64,000 nt of DNA from Balanoglossus misakiensis (taxonomy: Eukaryota > Animalia > Hemichordata), in assembly GCA_040954595.2 (NCBI GenBank), contig CM082588.2:4280156-4344155 (forward strand), read 5' to 3'. The position numbers were made by a program, and so were the translations under genes. Of this stretch, positions 1,775 to 4,359 are shown one piece after another. The notes beneath the pieces are model-generated. The model worked only from the letters and a program-made list of their open reading frames with translations. It was not told where the DNA came from and did not search any database. Numbering within the stretch: position 1 is the stretch's first letter; every line of letters starts with the position of its first letter.

Positions 1775-3928
1775 TTATCCTGGTGGCCATCCCATTTGTC
1801 TTCCACCCATCACATGGATGTGGAGATGGTAGACAGACTGTGATCCGTCAGGGCCATCATTTATCACTGCAAGAAGAAAAAAAAGTCTTTATTCGATAGT
1901 TCACATATATAAAACCTGGGCCAGTCCATGGCCAACCCAGGTTTCATCAATACATTGATACACCGCATTAGCATACACAATTACAATAACAATAGCACAG
2001 ACTTACAAGAGATACAGCAGCCTTGATCATTGTTCTATGCTTACAATGAAACGTGAGAGCAAAGACCTTGGCCATACAAAAGACCAAAAACTGAACTGGA
2101 AAAAACTCACCAACTCTGTAACCATTGTCCAAGCCTTCCTTGACAGCAGTTTTTCTGGCAACATTCATCATATGACCAAGTAACTGCAGAAAAAGAGTAT
2201 ACGAGTAAAACATAACACATGTTAGAAAATAGAGCAAAAAGCAACAGTGAATGGGGCTTTCAACAACTCATACAGTACTTGCCAAAACACCTTGCAGAAA
2301 ACCTTGGCAGTGGTGTTACACTGCACACATGCAGGCCAGCAAGCAAAGTGAAATCTGTCTAAACCAAAACCGCATCCAGACTATTGATACCTTCCTCAGC
2401 CCCATTCACATAAACACCAAATCAAATGAACCTCTATAAACCAAACACCTGTAAACTGTAGAGATTTCTCAGTCATTTTGGTGTTTGGTTTTATTACACG
2501 TTGCGCTTACAAAGGTTACCATAGTATCCTTCAAAGCACAGAAGCTTTCAATGGTGATAAAAATCACAAATACAAGTACCCAGCTTGTTTATCAATACCT
2601 GTAACCATTACAACATCAACCTGTAAGACTCTAATACCTCTTCATCATCATCATCGGTAAATTCCAATGCCGGAATCGATTCCTTAGGCACTATCAGGAA
2701 GTGCACCGGAGCTCTGGGATTGTTACTTTGGAATGCTACACACTGGAAGCAATTGTTTGTGGAAAGAAAGAAAAAATAACAACAGCATTTGAGTAACACG
2801 GATCTCACCTCGGCATCAGAATCATCAACGTGGCTGATTCCAGGGATTGGAATCTTTGGAATCACTAAGAAATGCTTTGGAGCTTGTGGGTTAACATCCC
2901 GGAATGCAATGCACTGCAGGAAGATTGAAACAGGATGTAAAATGGACTACAAATGAAACTTTCACAACTTTGATAGAACTGTGATAAAACTGGCTAATAC
3001 TTGATTCACTGACTTGGGAACTCGATTTAACAGTGCAAATGGCAACAGCTACAATTCCAAACAAATTCCCATAAACACCCAAAAAACTATTCTACAAATG
3101 CCCATATCTTAACTCACCAGATCATCTTCATGGATGATATCAGCAGGGATGCTTTTATCCACGATTTTACTGAAAATAGTGGGTTCTCTGTCTGCATATC
3201 GATTCCTTGCCTCAGCTGCTAGTTGGGCTGCCTTAACTTCATCACTGCCAGTACCGCATGTGTCTGAACTTGATGTGCTGTACACCTGAAGACAATAGGA
3301 CCATTTGAATTAGATGTCATACATGTAATAAAGTACATGTAATCGTACAACTGTAAACAGTACAACAGTTAAAACAAGTTTGACATTAAAAGGGGAGTTC
3401 GCCTGGTTAATTTGGTAAAACATCATGACTAACAGTAGTGATTAAATGTAGCTTAAACTTAAACCTCATTTCTATTGCTTTCTACTTGGGGTCACTGAGG
3501 TCAAGTGGCCTGGGTCATGGGGTCAAACCAGTGAGAAGGGGGCGGGACCTTCTTCAGGTCTTCCTTTAAGCATGTTAAGCAATCATAGACAGCAGGAGGT
3601 TCTACTTCCGCTGTCTGTAGAGTAACACAACTGGAATCATGTCCGACACCGATTGAAGGCGGTTTTATTACTGGCTTTACACACCAACAAGATAATCCAA
3701 GTTGACCCCGCGTGACCCGGCATGTGTCTTGGTCCGAACCCGGACCAAGCTTCCGTAAATAAAAAGTGTAGGATCTTGTCTACAGCCACCAAAGTAATGT
3801 GTGCAGTTGGGTCAAACCATGCCTACCTGGTGTGACGTGATAATTCTTGGGGCGATGGTGAGCGCTGCAGCCATTCGAACCAAAAGACGTCGACTGCTAA
3901 GCGCTAGGACACCTGTCACCAACGCCAT
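1775..3928 (-). CDS. HINT2: Histidine triad nucleotide-binding protein, HINT2-like (mitochondrial-presequence isoform)
   Basis: Exons 3928-3827 ([34 protein letters not shown], basic, no acidic residues), 3285-3118 (...[22 protein letters not shown]), 2913-2809 ([20 protein letters not shown]...), 2183-2111 ([11 protein letters not shown]...GYRV), 1866-1775 ([29 protein letters not shown]). HxHxH triad and WPPG C-terminus are diagnostic. Confidence 0.92.
2638..2742 (-). CDS. HINT2: Duplicated alternative exon 3b of the HINT gene (probably mutually exclusive with 2809-2913)
   Basis: 105 nt, AG/GT bounded, phase 0/0, no stop: [35 protein letters not shown]; 18/35 aa identical to exon 3a, same length. 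Confidence 0.75.
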
Positions 3929-3937
3929 CTTTAATTG

Positions 3938-3955
3938 TACCCACAATGCTTTGCG
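3938..3955 (+). promoter_or_regulatory. ZNF143/Staf-type site next to a YY1-like motif overlapping the HINT2 ATG
   Basis: TACCCACAATGCTTTGCG resembles the SBS consensus; AAGATGGCG on the minus strand spans the ATG at 3928. Confidence 0.6.
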
Positions 3956-4204
3956 GCACTTATGATGTACATTTCATCCCTGATTTCATCCTGAACTGAC
4001 ATGCATTCCACACACGTACAGTACACACAGATAAAAATGATGGATAAACCAAACAACAGCGCTAAAGAATTAGGAGCATCACCAAGCATATCGAACAATG
4101 CCCATAAGCCTTCATCTAACGGCCTACAACAACCCCAGATATGTCCCTCATTTTAAAGGGCCTATACACAAATGATACAGACGCGTTGGAAATTAATCAC
4201 TTAC

Positions 4205-4279
4205 CAGTGTCGTGATAATAAAGCCTAGGACAAGTCCTATCAACACTAAAAACATCCTTTGCAAAGCAGTGTTTGCCAT
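4205..4279 (-). CDS. Putative alternative first coding exon of the HINT gene encoding a signal peptide/anchor
   Basis: 75 nt, ATG...CTG|GTAAGT (consensus donor), encodes MANTALQRMFLVLIGLVLGFIITTL; phase 0, so in frame with exon 2 (3285-3118). Confidence 0.6.
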
Positions 4280-4345
4280 TCCCCGTCGCGTAGTTGCAGC
4301 ATGTTCTGAGGAACCAGTAGTGCACATCTTCGAGCGACTTGGGCA

Positions 4346-4359
4346 GTTTCCATGGAAAC
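4346..4359. promoter_or_regulatory. Perfect palindromic RFX X-box
   Basis: GTTTCCATGGAAAC, about 67 nt upstream of the alternative HINT ATG at 4279. Confidence 0.6.

Follow-up and report, generated by a model that had tools for sequence, protein, structure and literature searches.

A HINT2-type gene of the acorn worm Balanoglossus misakiensis with two first exons and two versions of its nucleotide-pocket exon

Analysis of a 64,000-nucleotide stretch of the Balanoglossus misakiensis genome, hereafter the window, revealed on the minus strand a single HINT2-type gene whose first exon exists in two in-frame alternatives and whose exon 3 exists in two copies of 105 nt; GT-AG splice sites bound all of them. 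The preferred reading, to which a probability of roughly 55% is assigned, is that this gene makes up to four enzymes: a mitochondrial form starting with exon 1b and a secretory, membrane-anchored form starting with exon 1a, each carrying either the standard nucleotide pocket encoded by exon 3a or an altered one encoded by exon 3b. The elements of the gene, together with candidate promoter motifs, are reported in Table 1.

Table 1. Coding elements of the HINT gene and motif candidates near its first exons, in window positions.
Feature	Position	Strand	Description
Exon 5, coding part	1775..1866	-	histidine triad and stop codon
Exon 4, common	2111..2183	-	
Exon 3b, derived copy	2638..2742	-	Asp43 to Ser, Val44 to Asn, Gln47 to Arg; Phe41 and His51 retained
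3a-3b intron	2743..2808	-	66 nt, stop-free, in frame
Exon 3a, canonical copy	2809..2913	-	equivalent to human HINT1 residues 38-72; Asp43, Val44, Gln47 and His51 retained
Exon 2, common	3118..3285	-	linker and start of HIT domain; 73% to Saccoglossus
Exon 1b, coding part	3827..3928	-	34 codons; mitochondrial-type presequence with 4 basic and 0 acidic residues
YY1-like 9-mer, weak	3923..3931	-	overlaps the 1b start codon; 2 matches; 5/100 shuffles give as many
ZNF143/SBS-like site, weak	3938..3955	+	upstream of exon 1b; one mismatch; matched or bettered in 22/100 shuffles
Exon 1a, coding part	4205..4327	-	41 codons; short N-terminal tail, then hydrophobic segment; further in-frame ATG at 4279
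RFX X-box-like perfect 14-bp palindrome	4346..4359	.	candidate site, relaxed consensus; 18 nt upstream of the 1a ATG at 4327

An earlier note on this DNA, made from the letters alone, had described two in-frame first exons and two equal-length versions of exon 3, and this anatomy was confirmed. AG precedes and GT follows each internal exon, both first exons end in GT, and all four alternative exons (1a, 1b, 3a and 3b) have phase 0. All four combinations of 1a or 1b with 3a or 3b give an open frame running through one histidine-triad motif, and the predicted products are 186 aa (1a, from the ATG at 4327) and 179 aa (1b) long. The limits of exon 1a, previously placed at 4205-4279, had to be corrected: the ATG at 4279 was rejected as the main start because the upstream one, which opens a frame of 41 codons, is conserved and matches the Glandiceps and Saccoglossus proteins.

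The two versions of exon 3 form a homologous tandem pair, equal in length and phase, and are identical at 57 of 105 nucleotides and 18 of 35 amino acids; by codon position, identity is 20, 23 and 14 of 35 at the first, second and third position. When the 445 stretches of the window in which 105 nt lie between AG and GT were compared with 3a, 3b scored 18/35 and the runner-up 7/35. The Pfam HIT model (PF01230) is scored by 3a and 3b alike, the H-x-H-x-H-x-x triad (x, hydrophobic) is present in the gene, and the window holds only one HINT copy. The frame is kept also if 3a and 3b are both included, and 3a, the intron and 3b read through as a single ORF (2608-2946). The intron, being short, may sterically hinder the joining of 3a to 3b and so enforce exclusivity. 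Exons 2 and 3 of alpha-tropomyosin are mutually exclusive tandem exons that work by steric exclusion; they too are equal-length duplicated exons with a very short intron between them, but the acorn-worm intron, of 66 nt, has no consensus branch point, one weak candidate being found 52 nt from the acceptor; the exclusion mechanism is here putative. A repeat search for a docking/selector system between exons 2 and 4 returned only short pairs, none of them clear, and a search of the minus strand from 900 to 1774 gave no poly(A) hexamer.

The gene sits between the end of a phosphodiesterase gene and a divergent gene near 5.2 kb. The former is a cyclic-nucleotide phosphodiesterase gene whose 3' end (window 1-1100) is convergent with the HINT gene. 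The latter (5161-6900, plus strand) lies head-to-head with it, possibly sharing its promoter region, and is made of small Cys-rich exons with a hydrophobic end; by eye it looks like a GPI-anchored Ly6/uPAR-type protein, and the one exon searched gave no Pfam match. An NDUFB4 exon is located at 7801-7974 on the minus strand, and a tubulin cluster of at least six genes, with five members on the minus strand and a sixth on the plus strand, spans 38-63 kb; judging by their terminal motifs, these genes are presumably alpha-type.

By sequence comparison the gene belongs to the HINTs and resembles HINT2 most. The closest PDB sequence is HINT2, at 157.8 bits versus 134 for HINT1; human HINT2 is also first in rank when the predicted fold of the Glandiceps 1a+3b model is compared with known structures. 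A tree of 26 rows, with two rows skipped in trimming, does not separate HINT1 from HINT2, and similarity ranks favour HINT2. Human HINT2, a mitochondrial adenosine 5'-monophosphoramidase, has the HIT domain, the triad and a presequence-type first exon as in 1b; it differs in keeping the equivalents of Asp43 and Gln47, absent from acorn-worm 3b, and the literature searched yielded no description of a signal-anchor first exon or a second exon-3 copy in it. The cytosolic human HINT1, which exon 3 matches without gaps over residues 38-71, differs in its lack of a targeting peptide and in its canonical pocket.

The single N-terminal hydrophobic segment encoded by exon 1a has a 17-residue core with a mean hydropathy of 2.85, and is flanked by a net charge of +3 on its N-terminal side and -3 on its C-terminal side. 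Cores of the same type are found in the corresponding proteins of Glandiceps (2.07; +3/-3) and Saccoglossus (2.46; +1/-1) and in a second, short Saccoglossus model (2.75; -1/-2), and all four 1a-type proteins share a GxxxG motif within the anchor. Comparison of 1a with each of three acorn-worm N-termini gave scores reached by none of 5000 shuffles, and no alignment above shuffles was obtained with 1b-type or fish sequences, the latter represented by one insert-bearing model. According to the positive-inside rule, a basic N-terminal flank is the pattern of an N-in, type II anchor; the charge bias of 1a therefore fits such an anchor, with the HIT domain lumenal. Exon 1a thus probably gives the enzyme a membrane anchor within the secretory pathway, as the earlier note had proposed in calling it a signal anchor. 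The Met-Cys start of the exon (4322-4327), common to this genome, Glandiceps and Saccoglossus, could presumably be a lipidation site or a Cys N-degron. Exon 1b, also as proposed, has the character of a mitochondrial presequence by composition and homology, like the presequences of HINT2: it is identical at 25 of 34 residues to the N-terminus of Ptychodera flava, aligns to that of amphioxus too, and likely targets mitochondria. Among fish, ten HINT2 models of 197-212 aa carry after the presequence an in-frame insert in which a signal-peptidase-like site accompanies a hydrophobic stretch. This insert resembles retained or alternative intron-1 sequence; in the one model compared it shows no homology to exon 1a, and it could have provided HINT2 with a secretory route of independent origin.

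The consequences of the exon-3 swap can be read against its correspondence to residues 38-72 of human HINT1. In that enzyme Asp43 hydrogen-bonds the 2',3'-OH groups of the ribose, and Phe41 and Ile44 help to form the base pocket, according to the available part of a preprint (bioRxiv 10.1101/2024.07.15.603568). An alignment of 111 of 194 proteins (A3), from which fragments, truncated models and long-insert models were left out, contains Asp43 in 108/108 rows other than 3b, Gln47 in 107/108 and Val or Ile44 in 101/108; for each of these positions the count in 3b rows is 0/3. Five 3b copies are available in all: residue 43 is Ser in four and Asn in one, a Saccoglossus copy; residue 44 is Asn in four and Lys in one; residue 47 is Arg in four and Leu in one, that of Glandiceps; and all five retain Phe41, Pro46, Pro49, His51 and Pro56. 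The 3a form has both the ribose-binding Asp43 and a hydrophobic residue 44, and 3b lacks both in 5/5 copies. The predicted structure of the Glandiceps 1a+3b protein, folded in place of the window's own product, has the HINT fold, with pLDDT above 90 across the domain, and lies 0.7 A from HINT2 over 111 columns; its N-terminal 50 residues are unreliable, the anchor region lying below 50. This model replaced an earlier fold from 11 sequences, which was poor (pLDDT 57.8). The substitutions at 43, 44 and 47, together with the kept fold, therefore indicate that the swap is focused on the sugar/base site, as the earlier note had suggested in proposing an exchange of the nucleotide-binding pocket: known pocket residues are replaced and the histidines kept. 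On these grounds 3b likely changes the substrate; as it lacks a defining pocket feature, it is HINT-like in fold and triad, and AMP-amidase activity should not be assumed for it.

Besides this genome, 3b is conserved in three acorn-worm families and 1a in two; the closest match of exon 2 is to Saccoglossus kowalevskii (73%). The 3b of the window is identical at 31/35 residues to that of Ptychodera, at 28/35 and 25/35 to two Saccoglossus copies and at 26/35 to that of Glandiceps, versus 17-20/35 to 3a copies, and 3a is conserved about as well (30/35, 27/35). A tree built from 25 exon-3 segments groups the five 3b copies as a single clade (support 98/96), which sits on a long stem of 0.84. No 3b-like segment from outside acorn worms was present among the best 120 of 6098 matches, one echinoderm included; a region search with the Saccoglossus 3b segment, of low sensitivity, recovered that segment alone from a single candidate; a degenerate 3b pattern hit 0 metagenome contigs; and the ESM Atlas returned only generic HINT clusters, at 0.87, with no match to the N-terminal 62 residues.

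The isoforms of the relatives are automatic gene models, unnamed in RefSeq. Those of Glandiceps talaboti (Spengelidae) combine 1a with 3a (X1), 1a with 3b (X2) and 1b with 3a (X3); X1 and X2 differ at 16 positions, all inside exon 3 (residues 97-130), so that 3a and 3b are either/or in these models. Ptychodera flava (Ptychoderidae) has a 1b+3b model, and no 1a model among the matches listed. In Saccoglossus (Harrimaniidae), LOC102803536 has two models, one with a 1b-type and the other with a 1a-type start, and both are truncated models, carrying the two exon-3 copies one after the other before reading on into intron. They count against strict exclusivity, and the either/or choice is not universal in annotation. 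A further Saccoglossus protein, XP_006817547.1, consists of a 1a-type start, exon 2, a 3b-type exon and exons 4-5 with the full triad, and ranked top of the 38 matches obtained with 3b as query among 1.84 billion representatives. Probably it is a paralogue located nearby, a local duplicate of the gene, and a splice form may here have become fixed as a gene in its own right. As each of the four pairings is represented in the gene models, an obligatory coupling of 1a to 3b, in line with a link floated in the earlier note, was rejected; the two choices are probably regulated separately, perhaps with a bias towards 1a-3b, as hinted by the second Saccoglossus copy. That note had named lack of conservation in related species as grounds for giving up its idea. 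Both exons are conserved and present in RefSeq models of other acorn worms, so that this ground for refutation fails, and a pseudo-exon status of 3b was rejected, its splice sites and frame being intact. The isoform, which the note did not know as described, was found in no paper of the literature searched and nevertheless exists as these unnamed models; the sequence is therefore less new, and the novelty of the interpretation is unaffected.

A clue to expression comes from the cell atlas of another acorn worm, Schizocardium californicum (PMC13554239, Supplementary Data 3), in a portion of its marker table covering clusters 0-12 and part of 13, where Hint2 (SCA33592) is listed once. It is up in cluster 12, with a fold value of 1.10, in 61% of cells against 46% of other cells (adjusted p 7e-139), expression elsewhere being broad. 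The data are gene-level, Hint2 was matched by name and not by sequence, and the columns, which carry no headings, were read by the Seurat convention; a count column suggests four further Hint2 clusters beyond this portion, which could change the reading of cluster 12. The authors label cluster 12 as muc2-positive secretory and clusters 6 and 11 as ciliary band; in the same portion, Hint2 is not listed as a marker of either 6 or 11. Also high in cluster 12 are the PAPS synthase Papss (+2.26), the Golgi PAP phosphatase Impa3 (+2.05), the PAPS transporter S35b2 (+1.75) and several sulfotransferases. Four mitochondrial control genes are up in ciliary cluster 11 and absent or down in 12, which nonetheless shows a slight rise of two further mitochondrial genes (PMC13554239). 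Within that portion, no Rfx gene is listed among cluster 12 markers, and neither 6 nor 11 has Rfx3 raised; the atlas therefore speaks neither for nor against RFX control.

The proposed mechanism goes from what is seen to what is conjectural. Exon anatomy, open frames, conservation and pocket substitutions are features of the sequence itself; the use of 1a, 1b, 3a and 3b, with the either/or choice of Glandiceps, is represented by automatic models in relatives only. From there, 1a would be a type II anchor that positions the HIT dimer at the cell surface or within the lumen of the ER/Golgi, and 3b, with triad and His51 kept, would still be catalytic, a ribose with free 2',3'-diol being no longer clamped. 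Most speculatively, the 1a forms would work in gland cells that make sulfated mucus, removing the nucleotide by-products which sulfation in the Golgi leaves behind; the substrates would be of the APS type for 3a and 3'-phosphorylated, of the PAPS/PAP type, for 3b. An Asp clamping the 2',3'-diol would clash with a 3'-phosphate, which Ser, Asn or Arg could accept. In the parts of PMC4613722 and PMC7072326 available, Fhit, Arabidopsis Hint4 and DcpS are described as splitting adenosine 5'-phosphosulfate (APS) to AMP and sulfate, and share with the present gene the HIT chemistry able to hydrolyse APS. The predicted clash, this APS chemistry and a sulfation-rich cell type together suggest, as a hypothesis, PAPS/PAP as the 3b substrate; PAPS was not a substrate in the ammonolysis by Fhit reported in that part of PMC4613722. 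A Golgi-lumenal HINT2 obtained by splicing alone, its 1a anchor and 3b pocket making a PAPS/PAP hydrolase that regulates sulfated-mucus production, is accordingly put forward as a doubtful, rather unlikely extension.

Among other readings, the earlier note had favoured an RFX-driven promoter making the 1a form, and with it 3b, in ciliated cells or sperm, and had called the element at 4346-4359 a perfect RFX X-box. The palindrome is perfect and agrees with a relaxed consensus but fails the stricter degenerate one. Enrichment in the window speaks for RFX, with nine relaxed strand-matches at six sites against 0.57 expected, and the remaining five sites (35237-59541) lie in or beside the tubulin gene cluster, as expected of ciliary RFX targets. 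An out-of-frame ATG within the palindrome suggests a transcription start just downstream, or leaky scanning. The ZNF143/YY1-like motifs that the note had seen at 1b both turned out weak, since 22/100 and 5/100 shuffled sequences, respectively, give as many. The cilia link itself gains no support from the portion of the atlas table described above, where Hint2 is unlisted for clusters 6 and 11, those of the ciliary band, and marks secretory cluster 12 (PMC13554239), and RFX-driven expression in ciliated cells or sperm is judged improbable. Similarly low odds are given to a different destination of the 1a product, namely the mitochondrial outer membrane or the cytosolic face of a membrane, or secretion as a soluble enzyme after cleavage of the signal: cleavage is conceivable where a short hydrophobic segment runs into a Ser/Thr-rich linker, but the 24-residue leader ahead of the core is long for a cleaved signal, and the residues are basic before and acidic after the core in three of three full N-termini (+3/-3, +3/-3, +1/-1).

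The main rival to an altered substrate of 3b, itself unlikely, is that 3b makes a weakly active or inactive subunit which, paired with the 3a enzyme in mixed dimers, tunes or blocks it, or else a non-enzymatic scaffold; the role proposed for avian HINTW offers a model for such a regulatory subunit. Losing an otherwise invariant ribose-binding Asp could simply abolish binding, and the 3a and 3b forms share exons 4-5, which are taken to carry most of the HINT dimer surface. Yet 3b is conserved as well as 3a in three families, converging on specific polar residues at 43-45, and the Saccoglossus 1a+3b model retains the full triad. A last reading, in which 1a and 3b are mere remnants with no function or artefacts of annotation, is very improbable and largely refuted by their conservation in three families, by intact splice sites and frames, and by an identity between 3a and 3b which is higher at codon positions 1-2 than at position 3.

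Relocation of HINT proteins has parallels. In the available part of PMC7414715, HINTs repeatedly gain targeting peptides, as in the Hint1/Hint2 paralogs, and a predicted secreted Hint2 occurs in Blastocystis hominis; there, relocalisation follows gene duplication, whereas the acorn-worm gene would combine alternative first exons in one gene with a pocket swap. No paper on a membrane-anchored or exon-swapped HINT2 was found in the literature searched, with subscription journals mostly outside it, and no text on an Asp43 mutant of HINT was found in that mostly open-access literature.

HINT enzymes are of ancient origin, and debate continues over their natural substrates. The 3a and 3b forms are a natural matched pair, differing in one 35-residue exon over the sugar-binding site, with a second switch that changes the compartment; their comparison would test what Asp43, Ile44 and Gln47 select for. 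If the preferred reading is true, a membrane-anchored HINT in mucus-gland cells points to a role in nucleotide clean-up within the secretory pathway, one for which no report in animal HINTs was found in the literature searched.
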